A DNA stretch of 64,000 nucleotides from a virus (taxonomy: Duplodnaviria > Caudoviricetes), in the IMG/VR virus record IMGVR_UViG_3300043786_001845, positions 290 through 64,289 of that record, one strand, 5' to 3'. Shown one piece after another: positions 10,209 to 47,826 of the stretch; within the stretch, counting starts at the first letter, position 1; the number at the start of each line of letters is the position of its first letter. The position numbers were made by a program, and so were the translations under genes. Below the pieces are notes generated by a model. It was not told the origin of the DNA and did not search any database. It saw only the letters and a program-made list of their open reading frames with translations.

Positions 10209-11486
10209 TCAGTACAGGGGCGACGGCGTGGGCGCCCGGGTGGTGCGCCGGTCCTTCACCGCCTTCCACTCGGTCAAGTCACAGTAGACGCCGAGGTGGT
10301 ACTCGTAGTTGTAATACAGCCCGGGCGGGAAGATGGTGAGTTCCCACGTCAGCGGGTCGAAATTCCACTGGTCGTCCGGAACCTCGACACCGCCGCGCCA
10401 CAAGATGGCCGCGACAGAGTCGGGATCGGCCCCGAGCGCGTGGGCGGTCACAAACTCCTTCAGGTCGTCCGGCAGGAAGCTGCCGAGGGCGGTCACGTCC
10501 GGTGCCGGGGTCTCCCCCACGGCGGCCGGGCGGGCACCCGACAGGAGCGCGGTGTGGTAGGCCAGCCCAAGGCGGTCCCGGATGACGGACGGAGCCCGGA
10601 GGACCACCGTGTTGGTGAAGTAGACGGAGCTCCCCGCGATCCCGAAATCGGGCGCCACGGGCTCCGGGAGCAAGGCCCGCTTCTGCTGGTACGCGTACGC
10701 CACGGGGATCTCCAGGTCGGCAGTCATCGAGAAGTCCACCTGGGCTGAGCGCACCACGTTCCCATCACGATTCACCGAGATGGACGGGGCGTCGATCACG
10801 AGGATCGGGTTGCAGAAGTACCCGAAGCTGAAGGCGGTGCGCCCTGACGCAGAATTGATGGTGCGGCGCACGTCTCCGGCCGTGACGGCGCTGAGGTACT
10901 CCTGGAAGCGATCGGAGTCGGTCGGGTCAGAGCCGTCGCCGAGCCCCATGTCGGCCCACACCTGGCGGAGGATGTCGGTCGGGATCTCCGTGTAGATCAC
11001 GACGTCGTTCAGGAAGACCTTGTAGTTCGTCGGCATCGCGCGCCGGAGATACATCAGGACCTCCCGCGCCTTGAGGTCGGTCTCGACCACGAGGGAGACG
11101 GCGAAGCGCACCACGATTCGATCCGACTGGTAGCCGGCGTACCGCAGATGGTTGTCGTCGTGGATGAGTCTCGCGAGCCTGTCCGGCTGGAGGAGGAAAC
11201 GGTTCCCGGTGTGCCAGCTGACCCCGGTGGCGAAGTCTGACACGTCGGCGGTCGGTTCCATTCGGACGGACAGCAGCGGGAGGCGCCGGGTGGCGAGTTG
11301 GCTAGAAGAGAACGGGCGAAAGTGGCGCCGCCGCCGCAGCATCGGCAGCTCCGAGTCGACCGAGTAATCGTGCAGGTAGCCGGCCGGCATGAGGCCCTCG
11401 ATGTACCCCCGCGTCGCGCCGAGCAGGCTGCTCAGCATCGGAGTTACGGATGACACCGGGCGCGAAGTCAGAAGATCGCTCAGCAT
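10209..11486 (-). CDS. Late protein, probably virion (neck/tail-completion-like)
   Basis: 425 aa with GAGG RBS and an upstream late-promoter motif; function inferred from context only. Confidence 0.55.
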   Translation of the reverse strand: MLSDLLTSRPVSSVTPMLSSLLGATRGYIEGLMPAGYLHDYSVDSELPMLRRRRHFRPFSSSQLATRRLPLLSVRMEPTADVSDFATGVSWHTGNRFLLQPDRLARLIHDDNHLRYAGYQSDRIVVRFAVSLVVETDLKAREVLMYLRRAMPTNYKVFLNDVVIYTEIPTDILRQVWADMGLGDGSDPTDSDRFQEYLSAVTAGDVRRTINSASGRTAFSFGYFCNPILVIDAPSISVNRDGNVVRSAQVDFSMTADLEIPVAYAYQQKRALLPEPVAPDFGIAGSSVYFTNTVVLRAPSVIRDRLGLAYHTALLSGARPAAVGETPAPDVTALGSFLPDDLKEFVTAHALGADPDSVAAILWRGGVEVPDDQWNFDPLTWELTIFPPGLYYNYEYHLGVYCDLTEWKAVKDRRTTRAPTPSPLY

Positions 11487-11510
11487 TTAATTTCCTCAAG
11501 TCTCATTTCT

Positions 11511-11522
11511 TATTAGGCTGTT
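11511..11522 (-). promoter_or_regulatory. Late promoter motif AACA-GCCTAA-TA
   Basis: Motif ~25 bp upstream of ATG 11486. Confidence 0.65.
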
Positions 11523-11523
11523 C

Positions 11524-11556
11524 AAAAAAAAAAGGAGAGGGTACACCCTCTCCTTT
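11524..11556 (-). terminator. Intrinsic terminator closing the Ubl-system operon
   Basis: AAAGGAGAGGG-loop-CCCTCTCCTTT hairpin followed by a long U tract on the minus strand. Confidence 0.8.
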
Positions 11557-11578
11557 CTCACTGCTGCCGTCCGAAGCG

Positions 11579-12253
11579 CTACCGGCCGAAGAGCTCGTGC
11601 TGAGACGAGTCGTCCCCGGCATACACGTCGCCGAGGTCGCTGCTTTCAACCATTCGGAGGCCGAGCTCGTTCAGCGGGCGCCCGCCGTTCTTCCGCTTCT
11701 GAGATGCGAACCGGAGAGGATTAGGCGACAGGACAGGCTGGAGTTCCTGCAGACGCGTCTCGACCGCCCTGCGAAGCGCGTCGCTCGGCTCCAGAATGCC
11801 ACCGTGCACGACGACCCTGGCGGGGGCCTGAAGCTTCGATCCGACAACCAGCGGCACGTTCACGACCGCGGACGGGAACTCCCACGGCGGAATGAACAGG
11901 ATGGAAGCCAGGAACTCCTCGTTGATGCTGTTCCGGTCGACCGTGCTGAACTGGCGGTAGTTCTCGGGGTGTCGGTGCATGATGACGTTCCACTCCGGGC
12001 TCGGAGGGGGCTCGGTGAACTGGATGCTCGTGGAGGTCGTCGTCTGGAACGGAAAGTACACCTCACCGGGCGCGATCGTGACGGTCGCGGCGGCGGCGTC
12101 CCAGGTCCCCTTCAGGTAGACCCCATACTCCAGGGACGGCGACGGGAGCGCGGGCTGGATGGACAGCATCGTGCGGGCCACATCCGCCGGGATTATCACC
12201 GTTGCTGCATGGTGGATAGCCAGCCCGGTGCTAATGAGATGGGGGTTGACCAT
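11579..12253 (-). CDS. JAB/MPN+ (JAMM) metallo-isopeptidase
   Basis: N-terminal catalytic E (LEYGVYL) and exact H-x-H-x7-S-x2-D motif (HRHPENYRQFSTVD). Confidence 0.85.
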   Translation of the reverse strand: MVNPHLISTGLAIHHAATVIIPADVARTMLSIQPALPSPSLEYGVYLKGTWDAAAATVTIAPGEVYFPFQTTTSTSIQFTEPPPSPEWNVIMHRHPENYRQFSTVDRNSINEEFLASILFIPPWEFPSAVVNVPLVVGSKLQAPARVVVHGGILEPSDALRRAVETRLQELQPVLSPNPLRFASQKRKNGGRPLNELGLRMVESSDLGDVYAGDDSSQHELFGR

Positions 12254-12254
12254 C

Positions 12255-13001
12255 TCAGGCCCCGGCAGCAGTGAGCTGCGGCGTGACCTTGTACTTGCCG
12301 CCGTTCACAAAGTCGGCCAGACCGACCAGCCGCCCGGACCGGTCCGAGATCAGCATCTTGCTGAGATTGAGCTCGCGCAGCTTGAGCATGAACTTGTCAG
12401 TGGCTTCACCGATGGTAGCCCCGCTGAATTGGTAGTACTGGTTGTAGATCGTGGCATCGAACCCCACCACGCCAGGCTTGCCGGCCGGAGTGGCATTGGG
12501 AACGGCGGTCGCGGGGGCGGCGGTCGCGGGGGCGGCGGTCGCGGGGGCGGCGGTCTTGTCAGTCGCACCGCCACCGATGGCGCCGGAGGCAACGGCAGTC
12601 TCGCCGATGGCGCCGGAGGCAACGGCAGTCTCGTCGGGCTTGCTCCCGGCCCCGCTCATTTCTCGCGTGGCGTCGAGCATAGAGGGGGCGGCGTTGACCA
12701 GGCCGGATGACGAGTCGACCTTGGGCGTCGTGCTCGGCTTCGGGACGACGGTGCCGTCCGAGCGCCACGCAGCGGCCTCAGGCGTGAGCTCGGAGGCCGC
12801 GAGTTCCCGGGGACATCCGCCCGAGCGCCCGCCCACCCGCATCTCCACGGTGAGGTGCTTCTTGAGGCGGTCGCTGCGGAGCTTCACACCGATGGCGGTC
12901 CAGTCGGTGTCCAGCTTCTGCATCACATCGTCGTTGGTGAGCTTCGCGTCGTTGTAAGCGGTGAGAAATTCACTATCAGTAATCTGGCTGGCACCACGCA
13001 T
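12255..13001 (-). CDS. Candidate ubiquitin-like modifier: helical N-domain, low-complexity linker, ~70-aa beta-grasp-like C-domain ending TAAGA
   Basis: C-terminal beta-beta-alpha-beta-beta-like pattern ending KYKVTPQLTAAG-A; A/T/P-rich repeat linker; lies between E1 and JAB. The fold is inferred. Confidence 0.6.
   Translation of the reverse strand: MRGASQITDSEFLTAYNDAKLTNDDVMQKLDTDWTAIGVKLRSDRLKKHLTVEMRVGGRSGGCPRELAASELTPEAAAWRSDGTVVPKPSTTPKVDSSSGLVNAAPSMLDATREMSGAGSKPDETAVASGAIGETAVASGAIGGGATDKTAAPATAAPATAAPATAVPNATPAGKPGVVGFDATIYNQYYQFSGATIGEATDKFMLKLRELNLSKMLISDRSGRLVGLADFVNGGKYKVTPQLTAAGA
12505..12634. repeat. Tandem repeats in the linker: 15-bp x3 (TAAPA) and ~30-bp x2 (ETAVASGAIG)
   Basis: Read directly from the sequence. 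Confidence 0.85.
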
Positions 13002-13016
13002 GCCTCTTCTCCTAAA

Positions 13017-13694
13017 TCAAGTTTCAAAACCCCGGAAGAATATCCGGAGCATATTGAGTTCGGCGGCCGAGACATCAACTCCGAGCCGCACGTTGGACAT
13101 CAGGTCCCGCACTGTAATAACGTCGCCGATCATGCTCGGCCCATCCTCCGAGCTGAGCGAATTGAGCAGCTCAGCGTTTGCGAACAGAATCCACGCGCCC
13201 CGCGAGGCGCGTATTGCGATCTCCAAACGGTCCAGCAGCTTTCTCTGGACCAGCAGCTTTCTCTGGATTTCATACGCGACATCGAAGACTATCGTCCATT
13301 CGACGAATTCGATCTCCTCCGAGCCAGTCTGCGTCTGAACTCTTTCCACGGTGCCGAGCATGAGTGACTGGGAGTATGAAGCCTGTCTGACGCAGTACCC
13401 GGCTACAGCCAGCTCCGCCACGAACTGCTGAAGGTCGTCGACGCAGAGCCCGGTGACCTCCTCGGCGGCGTACCGCTCGTCCAAAGTGAGTGCTGCGACG
13501 ATGCCGATATTGCAGGTGAATTTAGTGAGTTCTCGAAACGACTCACTGCTGCGCTTCGTGGACGACACCGCCGTTGCGTAGAGCTCGCGGAGCCGCTCGA
13601 GGCAGGCTGCCGGTCCGGCGTCCGCCAGGGTCATGGCCTCGTCGTATGCGGCCTTGTTGCGCTCGAAGATCTCGTCCGTAATGGTGTTAAGCAT
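13017..13694 (-). CDS. Hypothetical protein of the Ubl operon
   Basis: 225 aa; TAATG overlap with the E1 stop; contains an 18-bp tandem duplication (QRKLL x2) near 13232-13267. Confidence 0.7.
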   Translation of the reverse strand: MLNTITDEIFERNKAAYDEAMTLADAGPAACLERLRELYATAVSSTKRSSESFRELTKFTCNIGIVAALTLDERYAAEEVTGLCVDDLQQFVAELAVAGYCVRQASYSQSLMLGTVERVQTQTGSEEIEFVEWTIVFDVAYEIQRKLLVQRKLLDRLEIAIRASRGAWILFANAELLNSLSSEDGPSMIGDVITVRDLMSNVRLGVDVSAAELNMLRIFFRGFET

Positions 13695-14413
13695 TATTCG
13701 TCCTCCTCACCGTCTGGAGACCAGGCGAACGAGACCGAGCGCGCGAGCTCGTCGATGTCCGTGGTGTAGGTCCCCGCACGATGCTCCGTGATGTCTGCGA
13801 AGTTCCGGAACTCGAGAAAGCGGATCGCCATCAGGGCCAGAATGGCGGCCGGAACGTAGAAGCTGGGGGTCACGGCGTAGGAGTTGCCGCCCTGTAGGAC
13901 GACGACCTTCTTGGCCACGATGTCCGGCCGGAAGGTGAAGCTCATCGCGGACCCGCCGTCGTAGGCGAGCTTTAGCCACGTCCCCGGAATCATGCAGCTG
14001 GGGTCGATGGTGTCGCGGGCGTCGATGATGGTCCCGGTGGTCAGCTTCGTCTCGGGTCCGACCCGCTCGGTCGAAGCATCGGCGAGAGCTCGGGTGGCGT
14101 CGTTTCCGCCGTTGGTGATGGTGGCGAGCGCCTCCCTGATCGCGTTCACCTTCTCAGTGCGCCCGACCGCGTCGAGCCTGAACAGCTGGGTGCGGTTGAG
14201 ATTGTGCAGCTCGACCGTGTCGTGGTCGTACACGCGGAACATCATGCGCTCGTACATGGAATTGTACGTTCTCGTCCGTGCCGCGAACCTGAGGACATTC
14301 GAGCCGACGCCGCCCGCACCGAGCAGATTGATCCGGTGGCGCATCTTGCCGCCGCCGATTCGCTGCCTCGCGAGGTTCCGCACGTCCTCTCTGCTGATAT
14401 CAGGCATTCTCAT
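13694..14413 (-). CDS. ThiF/MoeB/E1-family adenylating enzyme
   Basis: LLGAGGVGS, YDHDTVELHNLNRT, K-V and IIDARD motifs; no CxxC zinc motifs and a single Cys. Confidence 0.9.
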   Translation of the reverse strand: MRMPDISREDVRNLARQRIGGGKMRHRINLLGAGGVGSNVLRFAARTRTYNSMYERMMFRVYDHDTVELHNLNRTQLFRLDAVGRTEKVNAIREALATITNGGNDATRALADASTERVGPETKLTTGTIIDARDTIDPSCMIPGTWLKLAYDGGSAMSFTFRPDIVAKKVVVLQGGNSYAVTPSFYVPAAILALMAIRFLEFRNFADITEHRAGTYTTDIDELARSVSFAWSPDGEEDE

Positions 14414-16127
14414 TCATCCTTCTGTCTAGTTCGGCGAAGCTGGCTGCGGTTATCGCGCCCAGCTCCCGCAGGCCGGGGACCGTCACCTCAGGATTCTGCT
14501 TCCCAAAGTCCCTCCAATCATCATCGGAAATCATCCCAGGATGTTCCAGCACGAAGCCCCTCTCGGAATTGTATGCGCTGTCCAGATTGCACTGGCGGAG
14601 CATCTGGATGAACTCCTCGAGGGTGGCGTGGCGAAATCCGCCGCGCGATTGCACCTCCATGTCCGACATCGTTCTATTGATGTCTCCGAGGCACACAGCC
14701 CCGCTCGACGAGATGTTGGTGTGTTTGGCCGAGATCGTACACTTCTTGTCGCTGTACGCCTGCGCGCTCGGGAAGCTGGTATTGTTCTTGGCGAACTTCA
14801 AGTCGAACGCGTGGATCCCTAGCTCGTGGTGCAGCGTCCCGGGAATGTCCTCGATGTAGGTGCGCCCGCGGCGGACGACCGTGACCGGTCGGACGAACTC
14901 CCTCAACACCACGCGCAAGACCGCCGCGCTGATCGAGGTCACGCTCTCCACAAACGGGTGGTCGGTCATTTCCTCCTTGAAGAACTTCGCGAGGTTGGCG
15001 GTGTTGACCTCGATCCTCGCGTAGCCGTTGACGTACCTCACGAAGTTCGAAGCCATATTTCCGAGCTCGGGTCTTGCCAGCCAGCCCAGCAGAGACTTCG
15101 CCCAGTCTGTGTGGGTGATGGTGACGCCGAATCCATTTGATGCCATCTCCGGAATGTGCGCGAGCAGCGTTTCCCATTGGGCGAGGTCGTTGATAGACCA
15201 GGTGCCGCACTGGGAGAGAATGAAATCAAGCGTGACGCCGCTCTCGCGTATGCGCTCCCGCAGCTCTCCTAGCGGATCAGCCCTGTTCGCGATGTTCAGC
15301 GTCTTGATGGTGGTGTTGTTGGACTGGAATTTATCGAAGAGGCGACAGATGGCATTGTGCGCGGTCGGAAGACTACTCGCGTCCATATCGTACTTTCGCC
15401 ATGTTATCTGCCCGGAGCGGTCGACGTAGGCGAGCCGCGTCTCCCCAGCCCGCCACTCGACGCGCTCGAGGCGCCCGAGGATCGGGTCGGAGATTCCCCA
15501 CTCCGCGACCATGGCGCCGGTGTGGGAGAGCTCGCAGTATCGGAACCGCGGCGACGGGATTCCGAGAATGCCGCAAGCCGCCGCCAGGTCCAGAGAATTC
15601 ACCAGTATTTCCTGGCCGGCATGGAACCAGTTGATCAAGTCGTCCACGTTGCTCCGCGGCGGGGTGCCCCAGCTCCAGATGAACCTGAAGGCGTCGCCGG
15701 GGTTGAGTGCGTCCAGGTCCTGCACCAGCTCGTAGCTGCATGAAGCCAGGAAAATCACTGCGAATCGGAGATCGTCCGACATCATCCACGAGTCGTAGGG
15801 GAATGACACCATGCGCCGTGGGCGATCGAACGACGGACCGGTGACCAGAATCATGTTCCACGTTGTGTGGCGATTGGAGAAGCGCGTCTCGCCTTCCCCC
15901 GCTCTGACGATGATCTGCGAGACGGCGACCCTCTCGGTCCCGCCCGGTGGAATGCAGTGCATGTCCATCCAGGACACGTCGATGGCGATCTCGGAAGGCT
16001 GCTGCTCGCGGTGACGAGCGAGCACTTCGTCGTACTTCCCCCTCACGACGGAGGAGGGAACCACGGTCGGCCTGAAGGAATGACCGGGGTAGCGGCTCTC
16101 CGGCATCCGCGCTGGGAGGCTTCTCAT
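14400..16127 (-). CDS. Large protein with C-terminal prokaryotic E2/UBC-like domain
   Basis: HTNISSSGAVCLG (14687-14723) matches the E2 HPN(I/V)xxxGx(I/V)CL active-site signature. 575 aa from MRSLPARM; ATGA-coupled upstream and overlapping E1 downstream. Confidence 0.75.
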   Translation of the reverse strand: MRSLPARMPESRYPGHSFRPTVVPSSVVRGKYDEVLARHREQQPSEIAIDVSWMDMHCIPPGGTERVAVSQIIVRAGEGETRFSNRHTTWNMILVTGPSFDRPRRMVSFPYDSWMMSDDLRFAVIFLASCSYELVQDLDALNPGDAFRFIWSWGTPPRSNVDDLINWFHAGQEILVNSLDLAAACGILGIPSPRFRYCELSHTGAMVAEWGISDPILGRLERVEWRAGETRLAYVDRSGQITWRKYDMDASSLPTAHNAICRLFDKFQSNNTTIKTLNIANRADPLGELRERIRESGVTLDFILSQCGTWSINDLAQWETLLAHIPEMASNGFGVTITHTDWAKSLLGWLARPELGNMASNFVRYVNGYARIEVNTANLAKFFKEEMTDHPFVESVTSISAAVLRVVLREFVRPVTVVRRGRTYIEDIPGTLHHELGIHAFDLKFAKNNTSFPSAQAYSDKKCTISAKHTNISSSGAVCLGDINRTMSDMEVQSRGGFRHATLEEFIQMLRQCNLDSAYNSERGFVLEHPGMISDDDWRDFGKQNPEVTVPGLRELGAITAASFAELDRRMNENA

Positions 16128-16837
16128 GACGCTGCCCCTGCTGTCGGGACCGAGCTCTCCCACCTGGCCCGCAGCTGGAAGTTGTTGAACGCCTCGGCCA
16201 CCAGCTGGTCGGCGAAGTCGCCGGTGAATAGCAAACTGTCCTCCACGAAGGACTCCGGCTTGCACAGCATGTTCACGGAGAGCAGCACGATCAGCTGCCT
16301 GAGTATCTCAGCCGAGACGATGTCCTTCCAGTGCGGCTGGTCCCAGACCGCCTCCGCGGCGGAGACCGCGTCGCGGAGCATCTGAGACGGGCGGGACGTC
16401 TTCCCGACGAGCCCGCTCTCCACGTCCACCGCGATGCACCACTCGTCCTCCCCCCAGGGAGGAGTCACCAGGGGGCCGTCCTCTCCCCGCAGGTAGAGAC
16501 CGCGGCCGGCCAGGACGCTGTCCGCATTCGCCCTCATGAAGTTCTCGTCACACACGATCGCCGTGAAGTAGGGCCGCGTTTCACGACAGACGCGGATGAA
16601 GTTGCCGAAATAGGTGATGGCGCTCTGGAGGGCCGAACGCTCGTTCTCTGGATCAGAAAGCGAGCGGAGCACGACGGAGATGCCGCGCACGCCGACCGTG
16701 GCGATGGCCTCCGCCATGTCGACCAGAAACGAATTGTCGAGTGACTTGACACTCTCGAACGAGACGAACATGGTCACCCACTCCGGGATGACGAGCCCCG
16801 GTGGATGCCTCCCAAAGAGTCCTACTTGTTGCGACAT
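16124..16837 (-). CDS. Hypothetical protein, first gene of the Ubl operon
   Basis: GGAGG RBS before MSQQVG; ATGA overlap with the E2 gene. Confidence 0.7.
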   Translation of the reverse strand: MSQQVGLFGRHPPGLVIPEWVTMFVSFESVKSLDNSFLVDMAEAIATVGVRGISVVLRSLSDPENERSALQSAITYFGNFIRVCRETRPYFTAIVCDENFMRANADSVLAGRGLYLRGEDGPLVTPPWGEDEWCIAVDVESGLVGKTSRPSQMLRDAVSAAEAVWDQPHWKDIVSAEILRQLIVLLSVNMLCKPESFVEDSLLFTGDFADQLVAEAFNNFQLRARWESSVPTAGAAS

Positions 16838-16894
16838 GTGAGGTTTCCTCCAATACAGACCCGTTTCCGAACTGGAAACGGGCGCTATCACAGA

Positions 16895-16904
16895 GATAAT
16901 ATAA
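16895..16904 (-). promoter_or_regulatory. Possible early promoter (TATATTAT) of the Ubl operon
   Basis: AT-rich TTTATATTATCT ~60 bp upstream of ATG 16837; resembles the TATATTA(C/T) early motifs recalled for phiKZ/AR9. Confidence 0.35.
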
Positions 16905-16906
16905 AG

Positions 16907-17749
16907 CTAAGTCGGAGCTTTGAATTGGGACCGCTCGACGATGTTCTGGAGCCACCGCCACTGGGGGTCCGTCGGAGAGAGGTGGCCGTCCTTCTTCAGC
17001 TTGTCGACCATCTGCTGCACGAAGTCCCCTTCCTTGCTACCACTCTTTGCCACGAGGACAGCCTGCCCGAGGACCGCTCGGACCTCCGCCTGGTCTCGCT
17101 CGCCCTCCGTAGGCGGCAGGACTGGGGGCTGAGGGGTTACGCCGAGGGCGCGGAGCGCGAAGAAGACCGTCGCGCAGGCGCGCACGTCAGCCAGGGCGTC
17201 ATGCGCGCCGGAGAAGTCACTCCCGGCGAGATGGCGGTGGGCCTCGGTCAGGGTGGGCCTCTTGTACCCGCTCCCCCCGTTCACCTTGGGAAGCCGGCAG
17301 ACCTCCACGGAGGAGACCATCGTGTCATAAGCCGGGAGCTCGAGGAAGTAGTCAGCGGCTGCCTTTTGTCCGAGCTCGAGGAACATCCGCCGCAGGACGC
17401 GGATGTCGAATCCGAGATTGTGTCCGACGAGGACGCACCCCTTGCTCGCCCCGACGGCGAGTAGCAGCTCTCGTACCTTGTCGGGTGCGATGCCCCGGGC
17501 GCGGTGCTCTCGGGAGATGCCGTGTATCCCAGCCGACTCCGTCGTGACGTCCGGCCAGCCAGGGAGCGGGGCGACGATCGCCGACGCGGCGGTGATCTCC
17601 CGGCCGCGCTCGTCGTAAGTCGCGAACGCCACCTGGATGGGGCGGGGCTGACGCGGGTCCGTCTCGGCGGCGCCGGAGACCCAGAGCCGGTCGGTCTCCG
17701 TGTCGGCAAAGAGGTACTTCATTGGGACTTCTGCTGTTGGTTGGGTCAT
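16907..17749 (-). CDS. DEDDh 3'-5' exonuclease (DnaQ-like)
   Basis: ADTET (ExoI), GHNLGFD (ExoII), YDTM, AHDALADV (ExoIII). Confidence 0.92.
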   Translation of the reverse strand: MTQPTAEVPMKYLFADTETDRLWVSGAAETDPRQPRPIQVAFATYDERGREITAASAIVAPLPGWPDVTTESAGIHGISREHRARGIAPDKVRELLLAVGASKGCVLVGHNLGFDIRVLRRMFLELGQKAAADYFLELPAYDTMVSSVEVCRLPKVNGGSGYKRPTLTEAHRHLAGSDFSGAHDALADVRACATVFFALRALGVTPQPPVLPPTEGERDQAEVRAVLGQAVLVAKSGSKEGDFVQQMVDKLKKDGHLSPTDPQWRWLQNIVERSQFKAPT

Positions 17750-17758
17750 GTGACTCTC

Positions 17759-18261
17759 TCAGGTGATTTTTCGGAGGCGGAGCGGGCGCTGACCAGAGCC
17801 GCTGTGCCGGTGGAACACGAACTCCCCGATCCGGGCGGTCCGCTTCATCTTGCCCGCCCAGCCGGGTGGCCCCTTGTAGTCGAGCTTCTTGCGCAGCTTC
17901 GGGGTCCAGAAGTGGGTGGCGCCCCCGGTGGGGTCCGGGATGCGACCCGCGTAGACCAAGGCACCAAAGGCCTGGATGCGGCGGTGTTCGTGGGCATCCT
18001 TCTTCTTCGGGGCGCTGGCGTGCTGGGGGGAAATTGCCCCTTCTGGTGCGTGACGGCGCAGACCGTCCGCGGGTAGACCGGGCTCCTGGTCCGGTTCATG
18101 ATGGCGTACATGACCGCGGCAACCTCCGCCATGGGCCGCCCCCGCGCCTCAATCCAGGCGGCCCTGGTGAGGCACCCGAGCTCAGACTTGGACGCCTGCG
18201 CGCATTGTGAAACGACGATGCCGATCAGCATCGCGACGATCATCTTTGTGTGCTTTTTCAT
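17759..18261 (-). pseudogene. SleB/Hydrolase_2-family cell-wall hydrolase with a 1-nt frameshift
   Basis: Signal peptide, CL..A.W.EARG, V...IMNR...YP.TVC.V..Q.GQF in one frame; DPTGGATHF..P.W....ARIGEFVF in the -1 frame; junction at or near the C6 run at 18025-18030. Confidence 0.8.
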
Positions 18262-18400
18262 ACAGTTCCTCAGTGATGAGGACCGCGCCGTCGTGGAGAC
18301 TGTCAAGGTCCGGCGCGGTCGGTGGTCAGTGGTTGTGTCGCGAGTGCGCGATTGCTCCTTCGGATGATAGAAAAGCCGCCCTCGTTGGGCGGGTCGCCGC

Positions 18401-19858: not shown

Positions 19859-20791
19859 TCACGGAGTTTTACGACGACCAATTTTCTTTCCGGCAGCCCT
19901 GCCGAAATACAGTGTAGTGATGTCTGGACGGTATGTGCAGTTCTTGAACTTGCAGAATATCGTGCGCCAACCGAGACGCAGCCCGTTTTCCTGGATGATG
20001 TCCAAGTAGGCTTTTCCGTCTCGTATCTCGGTACAGATCTTGTGGATCTGGGCGTCGGTCAAGCGCTGATTGGAGGTCGGCCTGAGACCCAGCTTGACCG
20101 CGTGCTGCAAATTTTCCGCAGCGGTTACCCATTCGAGATTCGAAGCGGCGTTGTTGGTCTTGACGCCGTCGATGTGGTTGACCTGCAAGTTCGGCTCGTA
20201 GTCCTCGCCCTTGAACACCTTGGCGAGGACGATGTGCAGCGTGTAGTTGACGCCGCCCACCTCGAAGCGGATGTAGCCGTTCACGGTGGCCGGCGACCTG
20301 AGCTGCAGCAGACGCTGGAACTTCAGGTTGCGCACGCGGCCGCTGGAGCTGAACTCGTAGTTCGCGAAGATCCTCGCTTCCTCGGGGAACAGGAGCGGGT
20401 CGAACCGTCTCCACTCCTCCAGGTCGCACTGCTCCGCGTCCTGCTCGCCCAGGCCCTCGTCGACGTACTTGCGAGTCTTCGACAGGCCGAGCTTGCTCAG
20501 GATCGAGTAGAGCTTCGTCGCCCTGTCGACACCCAGCTCTCGCGCGAGCTCCTTGACATTGCTGCCGTCGTAGTTGTCGCGCAGGAACTGGCAACGCTCC
20601 TCCGTCCAGAAGCGCTCGCGCCCCGTGCCGCGGCCCTGCACCAGGCCCAGCTCGGAGCACTTCCGGGTGACGACCTTGCGGTCGACCCCCAGCGCGTCAG
20701 CGAGCTCCTGGCGGCTCATGCTGTCGTGGTTGGCGACCAGGAAGTCCACATTGTCCTTCGTCCATTTCACTGCTAACTGTAAATCGGGCAT
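19859..20791 (-). CDS. Intron-encoded HNH homing endonuclease
   Basis: HIVLAKVF...VNHIDGVKTNNAASNLEWVT..EN..HA (HNH_3 type), NUMOD4-like FSSSGRVRN, two N-terminal WT..E..FL..N HTH-like repeats. Confidence 0.9.
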   Translation of the reverse strand: MPDLQLAVKWTKDNVDFLVANHDSMSRQELADALGVDRKVVTRKCSELGLVQGRGTGRERFWTEERCQFLRDNYDGSNVKELARELGVDRATKLYSILSKLGLSKTRKYVDEGLGEQDAEQCDLEEWRRFDPLLFPEEARIFANYEFSSSGRVRNLKFQRLLQLRSPATVNGYIRFEVGGVNYTLHIVLAKVFKGEDYEPNLQVNHIDGVKTNNAASNLEWVTAAENLQHAVKLGLRPTSNQRLTDAQIHKICTEIRDGKAYLDIIQENGLRLGWRTIFCKFKNCTYRPDITTLYFGRAAGKKIGRRKTP

Positions 20792-20817: not shown

Positions 20818-20829
20818 CAATCGAATGTT
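20818..20829 (-). promoter_or_regulatory. Late promoter motif inside the intron (AACA-TTCGAT-TG), upstream of the HNH gene
   Basis: Motif ~27 bp upstream of the HNH ATG. Confidence 0.55.
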
Positions 20830-20855
20830 AGTGCTTGAGGCTTGAAAGTTCGGGA

Positions 20856-21958
20856 ATCGTCGGGTTCCGATTCAATAAACACGGCAGGCCGCCGCTCTCG
20901 CTGCGCTTGATCATTTCCTTCATGGCCTGGTACACGGATCGGTCGAACTTCGTCTGAGCGCGACTCCACACCGCGTTGGCCTCCCGCACGTCCACGCCGC
21001 GCAGCCGGCTGATCAGATTCGTCAGCTGGAAGCGATACAGCTCCAGGAACGCCAGGTATGGAATCTCGACCTCGTCCTGCTCGTGGCCCGGACGCAGCGG
21101 GACGATGACGCAGCGAGACGAGAAGTTCACGCGGACGCCGAGGAGGCTGCTGCGCAGGTAACCACCCTTCCCGGAGAGGACGTGAAGGACGTGCTCGAAG
21201 ACCTCGTTGGCCCGCTCCTGGATACGCCAGAGGACGCTGTTGATGTTCGCCTCGGTGCGCTCCGCGTCGCTGTACTCGTCGAGAGCCTGGACATTCGCCA
21301 CCAGTAGGTTGAAGACGTTGTTGACCTCGTCGAAGATCAGCTGGCGGTCGACCACCAGGGCCGGCCTCAGGATGTGGCTGAACACCGGGATCTTGCTGGT
21401 GAGGAGCTTGTCGGCGTTCTCGCGGATGAGGGTGGCGTACTCGGAGACCCGTGGGTCCTGGCGGCCGCGCTTCTGCTCGTAGTGGTCGAGGACCTCTTCC
21501 CATCGCTGCTCGAAGCCGAGGATGCCGATTCCGTCGTACGGCCCGGCTGACTCGTCCTCGCGGGTGAGACCGTCCACCGTGAGGATCTTCTTCTGGTGGA
21601 GGATGCGGATCAGCTGGGAGGGGCCGACGACCTTGCCGACGTAGGTGAAGAACAGCGGGCTGAGGATCTTGTAACCGCCGAGGTCGACCCAGCCTCGCTT
21701 GCTGAACACGGTGTCGCGGCAGGTGACGACGGTGTCGCACTTCTGGCACGTCGTGCCCTCGTGGAATCGGCCCTCGACGGCGCCGCACTCGCACGCGTAT
21801 TCCCGTCCCGAGCTGGGCATCCTCCCGAAGATCCGCTCGCTGAAGACGCCACCGTCCGAGAACTTCCCGCTCCTCTCGACGACTGGCGTGGGGTCGTCGA
21901 CGACCCCGTCCTCTCGGAACCCATCATCCAAATTGATCAGACTCACAAACACTTCCAT
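20856..21958 (-). CDS. RNA polymerase beta' N-terminal (catalytic) subunit, exon 1; spliced product 465 aa, probably non-virion RNAP
   Basis: GVFSERIFG, Zn ribbon CECG...CQKC, GWVDL, KGGYLRSSLLGVRVNFSSRCVI, LLNRNPT. Confidence 0.9.
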
Positions 21959-24960: not shown

Positions 24961-24994
24961 AGCAGGAACGGGTGCGCCCGTTCCTGCTTTTTTT
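24961..24994 (+). terminator. Intrinsic terminator
   Basis: AGCAGGAACGGG-tgcg-CCCGTTCCTGCT followed by a T run. Confidence 0.85.
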
Positions 24995-26744
24995 ATTTGA
25001 GCTTATAGACGTAGCGCAGCTGCCCGCAGTCCCAGAGGCGCGCGTACCCGAGTGCCTGGGCCATCTGCCACTCGGTCATGGACGCGTCGAAGCTCGGCTC
25101 CATGGCGAGCAGCTTGTGCCGCTGCAGGCTGGAGCGGTGGAGGCGCTTGTTCGAGTCGTTCTTGTGCACGTAGTCGTAGGAGACCTTCGTCTGCCTCTCC
25201 AGCCGGAAACCGACGAGCTCGTAGCCTCGGCTGCCCCGGAGGGGGGTCCACCGGAGATCCGCGTACGTTACTAATTCCTCGTGGTCGGAGAGGTCGTACG
25301 AGCGCCGGAAAGCCGCGATGATGCGCCCCAGCGCGCCCCGGACGACGCTGCCGCCGACGGTGCAGAAGCGCAGCAGCTCGAGCTGCCGCCCGGCCGAGCC
25401 GCCGGTGATCGCCCTCTCCCCGAAGGTCGCCAGGGCCAGCAGGAGGCCGTCGTCTCCACGGAGACCGACTGCCGCCTCGAGGAGGGGGATGCTCCCCTGG
25501 AGGTGGTTCGCGTCCAGGAAGGCGCGGGCCTCGCGAGCTGGGACGAAGGCGTCGACGGTCGTCTTCCTGGCGTCGAAGACCGCCAGCGGACGGCAGAGAA
25601 TGGCGCGCAGGCGGGACTCCACCGTGGAGCGCCGACCCGCCCACTCGTCGGAGTAGACTCGGATCAGCTGGACGCCCAGGTCAGCCAGCCGCCGCGTCTT
25701 CTCCAGGGCAGCCCCCGGGCGGGCGGCCTCCCTCCCGCTGAACCACCGCTCCCTCGAGCGGCCCTCCGAGTGCCACCAGACGCCGTCGAAATCTATCGCC
25801 ACCCCCCTCTCGGGAATGTACATGTCGACCTTGACCCTCGGGCTCTCCGGCATGAGCCCGGGGAAGTCGGATTGGACCCCGGGCGCGAGACCTCGGACGA
25901 AGTCGAGCAGCTGCAGCTGCCCGCGGGACGCCCGTCCCAGGCGCGCGCACGCCGGGCAGCGCACGCCGCCCTCGTCCCTCTGGAAGTTGTCCGGCCTGGC
26001 ACGCCACTCGGTCCCGCAGGTCTTGTGCCGGTGGAGCACGGGAGTCTTCCCGGTCCTGTACGGCTCGAGCAACTCGTACTCGCCGAGGGACCGCACGAAG
26101 GCCGCGTAGGGCTCGCCGTACCTCTGGCACGCGCACTGCCTCGACGCGGTGGAGCCCTCGTCGAAGGTCTCCCGCACGCGCACCCAGGTCACGCTCTTCG
26201 TCTCGCCGCACGACGTGCACGCGAACGAGATGGTAGTCTTCTCGGAGGCGGCGGTGGCTTTCCAGGTGGTGCCGCGCTCGTAGGCGGCCACGACGTCGCC
26301 GATGACGTGGTCCTGGGGATTGCCCGAGCAGGATGGGCAGCGCTGCCCTCCCCGCAGATTGGACGGCGACACCCTGAACATCCGGTCGGCGTGCGCCGCG
26401 CAGCGGAAGACCACCGGCTCGAAGAGGCCGCGGTACTCGCTCTCGATCTCGTATCCCAGTTCGGCGCAGAGCGCCTCGAGCCGCGCCCGGCCGGCGTCGC
26501 GGTTCTTGTCGGCGGTCCTCCGGGCGGCACACGCCGGGCAGCCGCTTTTCTTTTTGTCGTTTCTGACCACGCTGTGGATTTCCGTCTGCCACGTGGAGTC
26601 GCAGTGGAGGCACCGGAAACTGGCGAGCGTCCGGATGGTCGCCCCGTCCAGGTGCGAGGGGGACACGCGGACGAAGTGCCCCTCGAGGCACGCGGCCTCT
26701 AGGCGCATCGGCAGCGGGCGCGGATCTTTCGTGCTTGTTTTCAT
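24993..26744 (-). CDS. Free-standing homing-endonuclease-like protein (multiple Zn ribbons, Vsr/PD-(D/E)XK-like domain, C-terminal Hef-like domain)
   Basis: Repeated CxxC/CPxC units; VDMYIP..VAIDFDGVWWHS; FLDANHLQG, ELLRFC, TYADLRW, RLWDCGQ. Confidence 0.8.
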   Translation of the reverse strand: MKTSTKDPRPLPMRLEAACLEGHFVRVSPSHLDGATIRTLASFRCLHCDSTWQTEIHSVVRNDKKKSGCPACAARRTADKNRDAGRARLEALCAELGYEIESEYRGLFEPVVFRCAAHADRMFRVSPSNLRGGQRCPSCSGNPQDHVIGDVVAAYERGTTWKATAASEKTTISFACTSCGETKSVTWVRVRETFDEGSTASRQCACQRYGEPYAAFVRSLGEYELLEPYRTGKTPVLHRHKTCGTEWRARPDNFQRDEGGVRCPACARLGRASRGQLQLLDFVRGLAPGVQSDFPGLMPESPRVKVDMYIPERGVAIDFDGVWWHSEGRSRERWFSGREAARPGAALEKTRRLADLGVQLIRVYSDEWAGRRSTVESRLRAILCRPLAVFDARKTTVDAFVPAREARAFLDANHLQGSIPLLEAAVGLRGDDGLLLALATFGERAITGGSAGRQLELLRFCTVGGSVVRGALGRIIAAFRRSYDLSDHEELVTYADLRWTPLRGSRGYELVGFRLERQTKVSYDYVHKNDSNKRLHRSSLQRHKLLAMEPSFDASMTEWQMAQALGYARLWDCGQLRYVYKLK

Positions 26745-26829: not shown

Positions 26830-28098
26830 TTACCGCAGCTCGCGCGTGTACTTCGCAAAGTCAATTTTTGCATGCTTTAGCGAGGTGTCGTGGAATGCCT
26901 TCAAACTTGCGTTCAACAGCACAGTTCCCACTCGGCTCGCCACCAGCCCGATGTTGGTTATGCCCATGCGGTAATGGAGCGTGCCGGCGCACCTCGAGCA
27001 GATGCCCTTCTTCGACCCGCAGAACAGCGGACTGCGGAGCTGCAGGGTCTTCCCCTTGATCGTCCCCGCCGACTCCGCCGTGATCTCGACGAGCTTCCCC
27101 CCCTCCTTGTAGAATCGGTACAGGTACTCGCGCGGCTCGTCCACCTCGACCCGCAGCGTGAGCGGCGTCCTGCAGTCCGACTCCGGGTCCGGGTCGAGCT
27201 GGAGGCCCTGGAACGCGGCGTTCAGCTGCTTTGCGATGTAGCCGCCCTGGGCGGTCATCATGGAGCGGCCGTACGACGCCTGGACGATGAGGTCGGCGTA
27301 CGCCGGAATCTCCCTCTGCGGAATCCCCTCCTCCAGCGACGCCGTCGAGACCGTGATCTTCGACGGGTCGTCGGACTTGCGCATCGCGCCGCGCATCAGC
27401 GCCGTCGACTTGAAGTTGTTGCCGAGGGACCCCCTGGCCCCAGACGCGAAGATGTCGTACCCGGGGTCCTTCCCGTCGAGCTCCTTCGTCGACACCGCGA
27501 TCAGCTCCTTCTCGGCGGCCGCCAGCTCCTTCAAGTCGCCGCCGCGGATCCGGTCCCCGCGCTCTCCGGAGAGGATCTCCTTCTTGAGCCTCCGCGCGGC
27601 CGCGGGCGCCCGGATGGTGTCGATGGTCATGGACGGGGCCAGGAACGAGGTCGGGGCGTAGCCGAGCCACTGCATCCGGTCGATCGCCCACGCCATGTCC
27701 TCGTGATCGATCTTGCCGTCGAGGCGCGCGTCGACGAGCTGCTGCTCGATTTTCTTGATCGTCTTGCCGTCCCACGGCTGGTCGTGGTACGGAATCGCGG
27801 AGCGGAGAGCCCTGGACCTGGAGAAGATCAGATTGTTGGCCAGGAATCGGCCGACGGTCGTGCTCCTCACGGACTCCCATCCCGGAGACCAGCGGACGTC
27901 CCACTCCCCAGTCCCGCGGTTGCCGGGCGGGGGGCTGCGGAAGTCGGCCGGGATGTCGAGGATGGCCTGGGGGTCGTACTTGGACGAGCCCTTCCGCGTG
28001 GCGGCCAGCCACGAGCGGAGCAGCGAGAGCGTGTAGTCGCCGGGCTGGACGCGCACCAGCTCGGCGGCATCCGCGGCCTGGGTGATCTTGCGTTCCAT
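26830..28098 (-). CDS. RNA polymerase beta' C-terminal subunit, probably virion RNAP
   Basis: SGARG, bridge helix TAQGGYIAKQL, DCRT, LRSPLFC...ICSRCAG, trigger-loop-like LLNASLKAFH; lies downstream of a late motif. Confidence 0.88.
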   Translation of the reverse strand: MERKITQAADAAELVRVQPGDYTLSLLRSWLAATRKGSSKYDPQAILDIPADFRSPPPGNRGTGEWDVRWSPGWESVRSTTVGRFLANNLIFSRSRALRSAIPYHDQPWDGKTIKKIEQQLVDARLDGKIDHEDMAWAIDRMQWLGYAPTSFLAPSMTIDTIRAPAAARRLKKEILSGERGDRIRGGDLKELAAAEKELIAVSTKELDGKDPGYDIFASGARGSLGNNFKSTALMRGAMRKSDDPSKITVSTASLEEGIPQREIPAYADLIVQASYGRSMMTAQGGYIAKQLNAAFQGLQLDPDPESDCRTPLTLRVEVDEPREYLYRFYKEGGKLVEITAESAGTIKGKTLQLRSPLFCGSKKGICSRCAGTLHYRMGITNIGLVASRVGTVLLNASLKAFHDTSLKHAKIDFAKYTRELR

Positions 28099-28099
28099 C

Positions 28100-28591
28100 T
28101 CAGGCCTCCGAGGCGCGGAATCCGGCCTCGCCGAGCAGTTTCGCGAGCTCGGCGCGCCCATTGGATGCCGTTCCGCCCAGGTACCGCAGCCGCACCTTCA
28201 GGCAGCCGTCCTCGGATGCGAACGAGCACGCGCCGTCCGGTGCCTCGCCGGAGAAGGCGGCCCGCGCGGCGTCCGCGTCTGGGCTGGCAGCCGGGGCCGT
28301 TATCTCGGCGTCCGCGATTGCCCTGCGGAGCGCCCACTCCCGCCCGCCGGCGCCCTCGTCGTGGTCCGCGTCGACCAGCCTGGCCGCGCAGGCGTCCTTT
28401 CCGTCCCACCCACCTGCCCGCAGCGCCGCGGGCAGTCGCCCGAGAAGCGCCGCGAGCCTGGCTGGCCCGTCGACGCGGCCGGCCGCGGCCCGCAGGCGCT
28501 CACCGACCTCGGCGCTGGCGGTGAAGCCAGCGGTGGAGTGGGAGTGCTCCCAAAGGCCGAGCTCAAGCATCAATTCAATTTCGTCACTCAT
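28100..28591 (-). CDS. Hypothetical protein
   Basis: Starts MSDEIELM after AGGAG and a late-promoter motif. Confidence 0.55.
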   Translation of the reverse strand: MSDEIELMLELGLWEHSHSTAGFTASAEVGERLRAAAGRVDGPARLAALLGRLPAALRAGGWDGKDACAARLVDADHDEGAGGREWALRRAIADAEITAPAASPDADAARAAFSGEAPDGACSFASEDGCLKVRLRYLGGTASNGRAELAKLLGEAGFRASEA

Positions 28592-47603: not shown

Positions 47604-47826
47604 GCGCGCGCTCACGCGCGGTACTGCGGTATAATCTCCTAAAAGGTCTTTATCTCTCTCATCTATCTGAGAAAATTAGGAGAAAAAAGGAGAAGTAGAA
47701 AACAGTAGAGTAAGGGGTTTTGAAGTATTATGTATATAAGTAATATACCTTATATAGATTTACTTTATAGAATATAAGAAAATAGAAATTCCGGATAGCG
47801 CGCGTGAGCGCGCGCTCACGCGCGCT
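47604..47826. other. Candidate replication origin or packaging site
   Basis: ~160-bp very AT-rich non-coding core, flanked by GCGCGCGCTCACGCGCG (47604-47620) and a perfect 30-bp palindrome built from the same unit (47797-47826). Confidence 0.5.

Follow-up and report, generated by a model that had tools for sequence, protein, structure and literature searches.

Does a phage carry, as one compact operon, its own machinery for tagging other proteins with one that resembles ubiquitin (a Ubl)? The question is raised by six adjacent genes, here called the cassette, in a 64,000-nucleotide stretch of viral DNA (Duplodnaviria; Caudoviricetes) that spans positions 290 to 64,289 of IMG/VR virus record IMGVR_UViG_3300043786_001845 and is referred to throughout as the window. 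An original prediction, made from the sequence letters, had read these genes as a complete Ubl-conjugation operon comprising an activating enzyme (E1), a conjugating enzyme (E2), the Ubl, a JAB protease, and two further proteins. As a whole, that interpretation is partly supported. Its parts list of E1, E2, Ubl, and JAB is borne out, each member by evidence beyond a motif, and each motif that it cited can be seen in the sequence: HTNISSSGAVCL, HRHPENYRQFSTVD, and a terminus reading ...QLTAAGA. We consider it probable that the cassette encodes a self-contained phage-borne Ubl-conjugation pathway, with a chemistry that would follow from its motifs, its predicted folds, and analogy with known enzymes.

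Layout of the cassette

The six open reading frames lie on the minus strand within positions 11579-16837 of the window, and every one starts with ATG. From g1 to g6 they are:

16124-16837, minus strand: g1, 237 residues, conserved accessory protein, fold without assignment
14400-16127, minus strand: g2, 575 residues, fast-evolving N-terminal region followed by a C-terminal UBC/E2-like domain
13694-14413, minus strand: g3, 239 residues, minimal ThiF/MoeB-type E1 adenylase
13017-13694, minus strand: g4, 225 residues, poorly conserved accessory protein
12255-13001, minus strand: g5, 248 residues, predicted Ubl precursor
11579-12253, minus strand: g6, 224 residues, JAMM/JAB metalloprotease

The close packing ascribed to these minus-strand genes, with overlaps or gaps of no more than 15 bp, is real: the junctions are, in order, -4, -14, -1, +15, and +1 nt. 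A longer g1 beginning at an upstream GTG (to 16891) was rejected, since the homologues and a GGAGGA site preceding the ATG at 16837 favour the shorter form. The window is nearly the whole of its 64,289-b record, which CheckV rates at 25% completeness. A relative, IMG/VR record G001 (259,338 b, with direct terminal repeats and rated 100% complete), holds all six genes in the same order at locus L002.

The E1-like adenylase

The E1 assignment stands on a match of g3 to Pfam ThiF at 1.7e-12 (47.4 bits against a cut-off of 28.1). GxGGVGS, D63xD65, ELHNLNR74, and D131ARD134 are invariant in g3 and its 3 relatives (n=4), and g3 has the features that mark the E1/ThiF-MoeB adenylase superfamily, namely a Rossmann-type ATP-binding fold with GxGxxG, the DxD/NLxR arginine-finger block, and the Mg-binding Asp. 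It does not have the conserved cysteine downstream of the adenylation core that a canonical thioester-forming E1 possesses: its lone cysteine, C149, is a lysine in the other 3 sequences, leaving no invariant Cys among these 4 sequences only. Hence, a textbook E1~Ubl thioester step is unlikely, and g3 reads as a minimal E1 adenylase without a conserved cysteine. When the g3 profile was searched against the PDB, all 41 matches belonged to the E1 superfamily (PaaA, UBA6, UBA5, SAE2, MccB, BubCD, NAE, TcdA, and Cap2). They span only the nucleotide-binding, N-terminal half, at 19-26 bits, and therefore no E1 subfamily can be named. The best NCBIfam matches of g3 are ThiF/MoeB adenylyltransferases, with the NCBIfam cut-off reached by none of the E1, E2, Ubl, and JAB proteins, and a plasmid search with g3 returned only generic ThiF on Pantoea megaplasmids.

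Two rival chemistries come into view with g3. The first, which we hold to be improbable, makes g5 a sulfur carrier of the ThiS/MoaD kind: trimmed by g6 and adenylated by g3, it would become a thiocarboxylate from which sulfur passes to phage DNA, a nucleoside, or a cofactor, with the conserved g2 cysteine serving to relay persulfide. Trimming by JAMM proteases is known for QbsE and CysO, and g3 is of the small MoeB/ThiF type without a catalytic cysteine, with its best NCBIfam matches in that same group. In the Iyer 2006 survey, JAB, Ubl, and E1 genes also occur together in sulfur-assimilation clusters. Moreover, a NifS-like cysteine desulfurase adjoins a distant, compact module on contig L009 (see Comparison with known systems), but it lies on the opposite strand and none is seen beside the sister module on L008; nor is there a rhodanese or a class-V aminotransferase (cysteine desulfurase) in the window's record or its 259-kb relative. 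The second rival, which seems to us highly improbable, is peptide modification of the MccB/PaaA type, in which a precursor at the g5 C-terminus would undergo chemical modification and then be cut free by g6 as a small product, and any likeness between g2 and E2s would be incidental to function. PaaA is indeed the best PDB match of the g3 profile (E 6.9e-5) and MccB is also matched, but these matches cover the shared nucleotide-binding half and score about the same as UBA6, UBA5, and SAE2 (23-26 bits).

The putative modifier and its protease

For g6, the predicted JAB identity is upheld by the zinc-site residues E42, H93-x-H95, S103, and D106, which are invariant in 43 sequences and spell out the JAMM/MPN+ pattern E...HxHx7SxxD. 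At E<=0.01, 18 of the 43 family members match Prok-JAB (best 7.7e-5), none of them above the cut-off among the matches listed, and g6 is the single Prok-JAB candidate in the record, with 11.8 bits over residues 88-121 (cut-off 25).

The putative substrate, g5, has a conserved N-terminal domain (about residues 1-90), a linker rich in Ala, Thr, Gly, and Pro (91-175), and a beta-grasp-like domain (176-246) that ends in KQLTAA and is followed by a tail of 2 residues, GA. KQLTAA is essentially invariant across 40 homologues, 12 of which terminate there, while the other 28 extend beyond it by 2-53 unrelated residues. An invariant end followed by variable tails is what marks a modifier that is synthesised as a precursor and then processed, and the final GA in the window would be a removable tail. 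The processing site originally proposed, TAAG-A, is thus wrong: the conserved end places it between TAA and GA. A large subgroup of the precursors (P0041-P0062 and others) shares a tail of about 50 residues after KQLTAA, of the form ...WPGM.YEQGV...NP(M/L)(E/D)D, and this removed tail may be a folded or functional peptide.

An AlphaFold2 model of g5 residues 174-248 reached a mean predicted local distance difference test score (pLDDT) of 90, with strands at 6-12 and 15-21, a helix at 24-37, strands at 43-46 and 63-68, and low confidence in the last 8 residues. The predicted C-domain has the order E-E-H-E-...-E of a beta-grasp, with a flexible terminus, as had been foreseen for the C-terminus of 12255..13001. 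An ESM Atlas model of the same domain matches the DUF2604/YukD, PB1, UN_NPL4, and Ufm1 clusters at TM 0.52-0.59, and with these beta-grasp families behind it the Ubl assignment holds. By its modelled fold and its processed, conserved tail, g5 would qualify as a beta-grasp modifier; the C-terminal Gly or Gly-Gly is not there, the conserved end being Thr-Ala-Ala in nearly all of the 40 sequences. The same features bear on both rivals. An Ala-Ala end in place of Gly-Gly and an N-terminal extension of 175 residues speak against a sulfur carrier. A conserved core followed by a variable, removable tail is in keeping with peptide modification, but the conserved part of g5 is, at the pLDDT just given, a folded domain of 70 residues and not a short core peptide.

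The E2-like protein

Both rivals can account for the E1, the Ubl, and the JAB; what they do not account for is the E2 active site in g2. This protein is made up of an N-terminal region (residues 1-390) and a UBC/E2-like domain (about 391-560) that contains H469-T-N471 and the candidate catalytic residue C479. An exhaustive HMMER search gathered 38 representative g2 clusters, mostly 520-640 residues long and similar to one another only over the last 180 residues or so. Invariant in 37 sequences of the family are H469, N471, G476, C479, G481, N514, and S517, and the triad reads HPN in 13 and HTN in 20 of the 37. A 10-sequence profile of the C-terminal domain (A10), searched against the PDB at E<=10, gave 72 matches, and the best 60 of the 72 are all ubiquitin- or NEDD8-conjugating enzymes; UBE2C heads them (E 0.0043), and over the roughly 90 aligned residues the FP, HxN, Cys, and NxDS motifs coincide. 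UQ_con is the sole Pfam family to recur in the g2 family, with 8 of 37 members against 1 of 37 for each other family, and its model finds a single candidate in the whole record, g2 residues 462-523, at 12.7 bits. The AlphaFold2 model of the C-domain (pLDDT 82, predicted TM-score 0.75) consists of an N-terminal helix, a beta-meander, and C-terminal helices, and all matches listed in a Foldseek comparison with the PDB are E2s (best E 3.1e-3, probability up to 0.99). The UBC fold expected of the 14400..16127 product is thus recovered by profile and by model, weakly in both cases: the H-x-N, the catalytic Cys, and the fold place g2 with the E2s at superfamily level. We take the domain to be a real but diverged UBC domain with its active-site residues intact.

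Other routes to g2 gave little. A word-index protein search returned only g2 itself, single-sequence PDB searches with the cassette proteins gave nothing or spurious matches, and the Prok-E2_B and Prok-E2_D models had no match in the record. A Prok-E2_D identity, which had been an Atlas lead (14% of one viral cluster), was accordingly not confirmed. In any case, the E2 signature H-x-N...C and the listed profile and fold matches, every one an E2, argue against a persulfide relay, and peptide modification would leave the invariant E2 residues unexplained.

The 2 parts of g2 differ in tempo. Mean pairwise identity in the family is 16% in the N-terminal region and 46% in the C-domain, so the first 390 residues appear to evolve about 3 times faster than the catalytic domain. 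In 4 other lake-water sequencing runs, the cassette is near identical, with zero indels and only 3 single-nucleotide polymorphisms (SNPs), all in g2 and all nonsynonymous:

14767: SNP in g2, S454I
15059: SNP in g2, N357D
15226: SNP in g2, D301G

This pattern is in line with a fast-evolving N-terminal region, although at n=3 the SNPs are very few.

Proposed pathway

Taken together, the 4 proteins suggest the following route for Ubl conjugation. The g6 protease would remove whatever follows KQLTAA in g5 (here Gly-Ala) and expose an Ala-Ala carboxylate, which g3 would adenylate with ATP. Because it has no conserved cysteine, g3 would probably hold the Ubl as an acyl-adenylate in the manner of MoeB; the alternative is an oxyester, as in the Bub E1. 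The invariant Cys479 of the UBC-like domain of g2 would then accept the Ubl as a thioester and pass it to lysines of target proteins; an H-x-N triad beside the Cys is how canonical E2s are arranged for aminolysis by the lysine of a target. No E3 is recognisable, and target choice would probably reside in the variable N-terminal part of g2, by analogy with what has been proposed for Bil E2s. What is attached would be not a bare Ubl but a 246-residue protein, its N-terminal domain tethered to the target through a flexible linker. Tagging could also be reversed by g6, and g1 and g4 would be conserved accessory subunits.

Several observations weigh against this pathway. The sequence or fold links of the E2, the Ubl, and the JAB all lie below curated or strict thresholds. 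For g2, the UQ_con score is short of the cut-off of 27, a UQ_con search of the 259-kb relative, including its own g2 homologue, found no match, and Foldseek gave none against the PDB at E<=0.001; among the matches listed, TM is 0.26-0.52, root-mean-square deviation 5-12 A, and identity 12-19%. Whole-length family profiles found nothing in the PDB, and the sequences of g2, g5, and g6 themselves have no Pfam match. The g5 Ubl-domain profile retrieved only spurious PDB entries (designed repeat proteins, TetR, and globin), the Prok_Ub model had no match in the record, and no sequence method tried linked g5 to known Ubls. Some of the tails in the g5 family may be gene-calling artefacts on short contigs. 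The Ala-Ala end departs from the Gly or Gly-Gly of characterised Ubls and, together with an E1 that has no catalytic cysteine, makes the cascade non-canonical. Finally, 2 of the 6 genes and two thirds of g2 are without an assigned role.

Those 2 genes are g1 and g4. At the place that corresponds to g1, L002 has a homologue with 30% identity (E 5e-29) and contig L003 one with 32%. The proteins at the position of g4 in L002 and contig L004 are 18-29% identical to it, tblastn to L004 giving E 2.8e-8, and the g4 family has a conserved ...L..FFR(T/G) end. Whole-protein scans of g1, g2, g4, g5, and g6 against Pfam, NCBIfam, PHROG, and PADLOC found no match. By hhalign, g1 shows no likeness to an inactive E1 domain or to g2 (negative to both the E1 and E2 profiles), and g4 shows none to an E1 domain (negative to E1).

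Distribution and possible purpose

The cassette appears to be conserved in a clade of uncultured jumbo phages that have their own multisubunit RNA polymerase. The jumbo-phage label that the window had been given is supported by split RNA-polymerase beta-type subunits and GroEL, which its record encodes together with HNH endonucleases and tail-fibre and virion proteins, and by the size of its complete relative, G001. The nearest RNA-polymerase subunits to that of the window, at 38% amino acid identity, come from AR9 and PBS1, which are jumbo phages of Bacillus, and from giant phages related to them, and that of G001 is 67% identical. The description of the phage as lytic holds only in so far as a tyrosine integrase is absent from both the window's record and the 259-kb relative; the latter has one ThiF gene.

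A search for synteny in other jumbo phages, suggested in the original prediction, was productive: besides the ordered set of six in G001, partial cassettes are present on the overlapping metagenome contigs L003 (g1-g3) and L004 (g2-g6), and a third contig has the end of the E2 and the E1. Contigs of equal size in the lists of 52 Ubl and 53 JAB matches suggest that the 2 genes co-occur on 11 further contigs of up to 234,694 b, though equal size is not proof. Scans of IMG/VR with the family alignments A1, A4, and A5 retrieved only the 259-kb record and a 43-residue fragment in L011; the scan with g2 alone found no match, and neither did a scan of a genome-contig collection with A1. Among 50,697 GenBank phage records, tblastn with the E1, E2, Ubl, and JAB gave no match, as did a DNA search of GenBank phages.

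As to what the pathway would be for, only guesses can be offered, and the purposes first put forward, such as tagging host proteins or countering host Ubl defences, are conjectures too. Interference with proteins of the host or of rival phages is a guess we make tentatively, and modification of the phage's own proteins is a guess we make more tentatively. One specific proposal, rather unlikely as it stands, is that this is a phage tagging machinery that tethers the g5 effector domain onto chosen host or rival-phage proteins, with the g2 N-terminus as a built-in E3 and the adenylate passing directly to the E2 cysteine. The opposite proposal keeps the same chemistry and turns it inward: virion or replication proteins of the phage itself would be matured or cross-linked, by a morphogenesis device and not a weapon. 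In its favour, the synteny is conserved within the phage core, the cassette being flanked in both the window and G001 by a SleB-like hydrolase upstream and the g7 gene (PHROG_21946) downstream; tail-fibre-like and virion genes lie a few kb away; and, according to Iyer 2006, Ubl and JAB pairs act in the tail assembly of lambdoid phages. But the putative target-selecting part of g2 is fast-evolving, with its 16% mean identity; the 3 nonsynonymous SNPs fit a conflict interface better (weakly, at that number); and the cassette is absent from all cultured relatives, and is therefore not essential to this type of virion. We regard the inward use as doubtful.

Control elements and neighbouring genes

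Three noncoding features border the cassette:

11524-11556, minus strand: intrinsic terminator that closes the cassette, stem of -22.5 kcal/mol (z -4.6) followed by U10
16855-16888, minus strand: stable hairpin between the upstream exonuclease gene and g1, -19.8 kcal/mol (z -3.75)
16896-16924, minus strand: sigma-70-like hexamer pair TTCAAA-17-TATTAT, 9 of 12 positions matching, in the sole AT-rich gap upstream of the cassette

The strong terminator claimed for 11524-11556 is confirmed: none of 200 shuffled sequences equalled its stability. The AT-rich site near 16900 is also present, in the form of the hexamer pair, which is a possible promoter. However, the claims that it is one and that the cassette is expressed early are unverified, because sigma-70-like sites occur at chance frequency in the cassette region (2 found, 1.3 expected), the cassettes of L002 and L003 were not seen to have a comparable site upstream, and the hairpin intervenes before g1. 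An unproven promoter counts, like the points gathered above, against the cassette as a working pathway. The hairpin, whose stability none of 200 shuffles reached, has counterparts (judged by eye) at the equivalent place in L002 and L003, and would either terminate the upstream gene or form a 5′ leader structure. An Rfam search of 11300-17100 found no match, and the window has no tRNAs.

TATATTA occurs twice in the 64 kb. Its only other occurrence is within 47706-47801. At 96 b, in a genome of 63% GC, no AT-rich stretch of the window is longer; it lies in a gap between divergent gene blocks and could serve as a hub of promoters or resemble an origin.

The gene g7 (10209-11486, minus strand) follows directly downstream of the terminator and is 44% identical to the gene at L002 13586-14863; in the 259-kb relative, 2 genes separate this homologue from the cassette. 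The SleB-like cell-wall hydrolase gene (17759-18306, minus strand) is split over 2 frames in the window. Sequencing runs X3, X4, and X5 have one extra G after 18024, run X2 is the same as the window, and the homologue immediately upstream of the G001 cassette is intact (L002 4519-5049); the broken frame probably reflects strain variation or an error in assembly. HNH/homing-endonuclease genes at 19859-20791 and 24993-26744 (minus strand) lie beside the split RNA-polymerase subunit genes at 20828-21958 and 26830-28161, an arrangement typical of the intron- or intein-rich regions of giant phages.

Significance

Bacterial Ubl conjugation has so far been characterised as host immunity, in CBASS (cyclic-oligonucleotide-based antiphage signalling systems), Bil, and probably Bub. 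If phages carry a complete set of writer and eraser, then phage and host alike use protein tagging in their conflict, in parallel with its use between eukaryotic viruses and their hosts. Were the tethering proposal to hold as well, the cassette would be the first case among prokaryotes of a virus that writes Ubl marks, an offensive mirror of Bil, and its conjugation route, from adenylate directly to E2 cysteine by way of an Ala-Ala terminus, would be one not described for any Ubl system. The cassette is compact, has no recognisable E3, and is naturally diverse (38 E2 clusters, with variable target-side regions and Ubl tails). It is suited to direct testing in E. coli, and it could clarify how a cysteine-less E1 can load an E2 and whether Ala-Ala can stand in for Gly-Gly. 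Moreover, a canonical HPN-Cys motif in a phage protein bears on the origin of eukaryote-type E2s.

Comparison with known systems

In its working, the cassette resembles the Bil, Bub, CBASS, and PRTRC systems, but it belongs to none of them. Bil is alike in having separate genes for Ubl, E2, JAB/JAMM peptidase, and E1, in the pre-processing of the Ubl C-terminus by that peptidase (a deubiquitinase), and in the want of an E3, the E2 being proposed to choose the targets. Bacterial Ubls with varied N-terminal domains are known, and some Bil Ubls, like g5, are a single beta-grasp domain behind an N-terminal domain. But the E1 of Bil, a large protein of IAD-AAD-CYS architecture, has a catalytic cysteine, whereas that of the cassette has 239 residues and no conserved Cys; the Bil order is Ubl-E2-DUB-E1 and that of the cassette X-E2-E1-X-Ubl-JAB; Bil exposes a C-terminal glycine where the cassette has Ala-Ala; and Bil is a host-encoded defence, whereas the cassette is phage-borne and has 2 extra conserved genes. 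With E1 architecture and gene order so different, and g1 and g4 not IAD-like by hhalign, the cassette is not a Bil system.

Bub (6E/DUF6527) shares an E1 without a catalytic cysteine, Ubls with varied N-terminal domains, and, in type I, a JAB, and BubCD is among the PDB matches of the g3 profile (E 0.0021). Its E2, however, has no cysteine and uses a serine oxyester, whereas Cys479 of the cassette is invariant beside a canonical HxN, and its genes are fused (Ubl-E2, and peptidase-E1 or E2-E1) whereas those of the cassette are all separate. On these grounds, and with the DUF6527 protease undetected in the Pfam scan, membership in Bub was rejected. Type 6d of Iyer, Burroughs, and Aravind (2006) is compared by description only. 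It too has separate genes for E1, E2-like protein, JAB, and a small Ubl, plus an alpha-helical protein that may correspond in position to g4, but in type 6d no canonical histidine is present in the E2, a conserved glycine closes the Ubl, and a JAB-N domain is part of the JAB, whereas the cassette has the canonical histidine, an Ala-Ala end, and a long N-terminal extension on its Ubl.

CBASS Cap2/Cap3 and 6A-MBL systems use the same E1, E2, and JAB chemistry, and g3 has weak matches of the Cap2 type (NCBIfam 6A-MBL_cap2_3, 29.7 bits against a cut-off of 320; PADLOC E1-E2, E 5e-4; PDB Cap2, E 0.009) that cover the nucleotide-binding part only. Those systems, unlike the cassette, have E2 fused to E1, and what they conjugate is a CD-NTase, not a Ubl. 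Type II CBASS was rejected since E2 and E1 are separate genes here; a CD-NTase is not among the results of the family scans, no search having been aimed at it. PRTRC was likewise rejected: PRTRC_ThiF alone matched g3, far below its cut-off (18.9 bits against 144.75), and none of the 6 proteins was matched by the models for other PRTRC proteins that the NCBIfam library presumably includes.

Toward eukaryotic E2s (UBE2C, UBE2S, UBE2D, and others), the likeness lies in FP...H(P/T)N...G-x-C...N-x-D-S, in register with UBE2C, and in a meander followed by helices. The difference lies in the position of the UBC domain at the end of a 575-residue protein and in the low identity and TM values given above.

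A simpler arrangement is found on 2 low-GC contigs from Ignavibacteriae metagenome-assembled genomes (L008 638-3367 and L009 6081-8468). This compact Ubl-E2-E1-JAB module has a Ubl of 83-87 residues that ends in Ala-Ala-Ala, an HPN...C-bearing E2-like protein of 268-279 residues, a short E1 of the ThiF, Cys-less type, and a JAMM protease; a DUF2958 protein follows it, its neighbours are methylase, helicase, and nuclease genes, and no NCBIfam model names it. Its E1 is related to g3 (hhalign probability 96%, E 2.5e-9) and its JAB is 29% identical to that of the phage (E 2e-11). Unlike the cassette, it is missing g1 and g4, its Ubl starts without an N-terminal domain, and its E2 is shorter. Its E2 and Ubl align with the phage families by hhalign at a probability of <1% and are related to them at the motif level only, and its E2 alignment (A12) has no match in IMG/VR. 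The module may be a simpler cellular or mobile-element cousin of the phage cassette.

The nearest precedent in the literature is a preprint on Asgard viruses, which encode E1-like proteins only. No report of a phage-encoded cassette of E1, E2, Ubl, and JAB was found in the open literature, though the Bil and Bub operon tables could list prophage-borne cases; this and the GenBank phage searches are consistent with the statement, made from the outset, that no characterised phage-encoded system of such architecture is known. What the cassette brings together is a cysteine-less E1, a cysteine-bearing, eukaryote-like E2 behind a fast-evolving N-terminal region of 390 residues, and a Ubl that ends in Ala-Ala.

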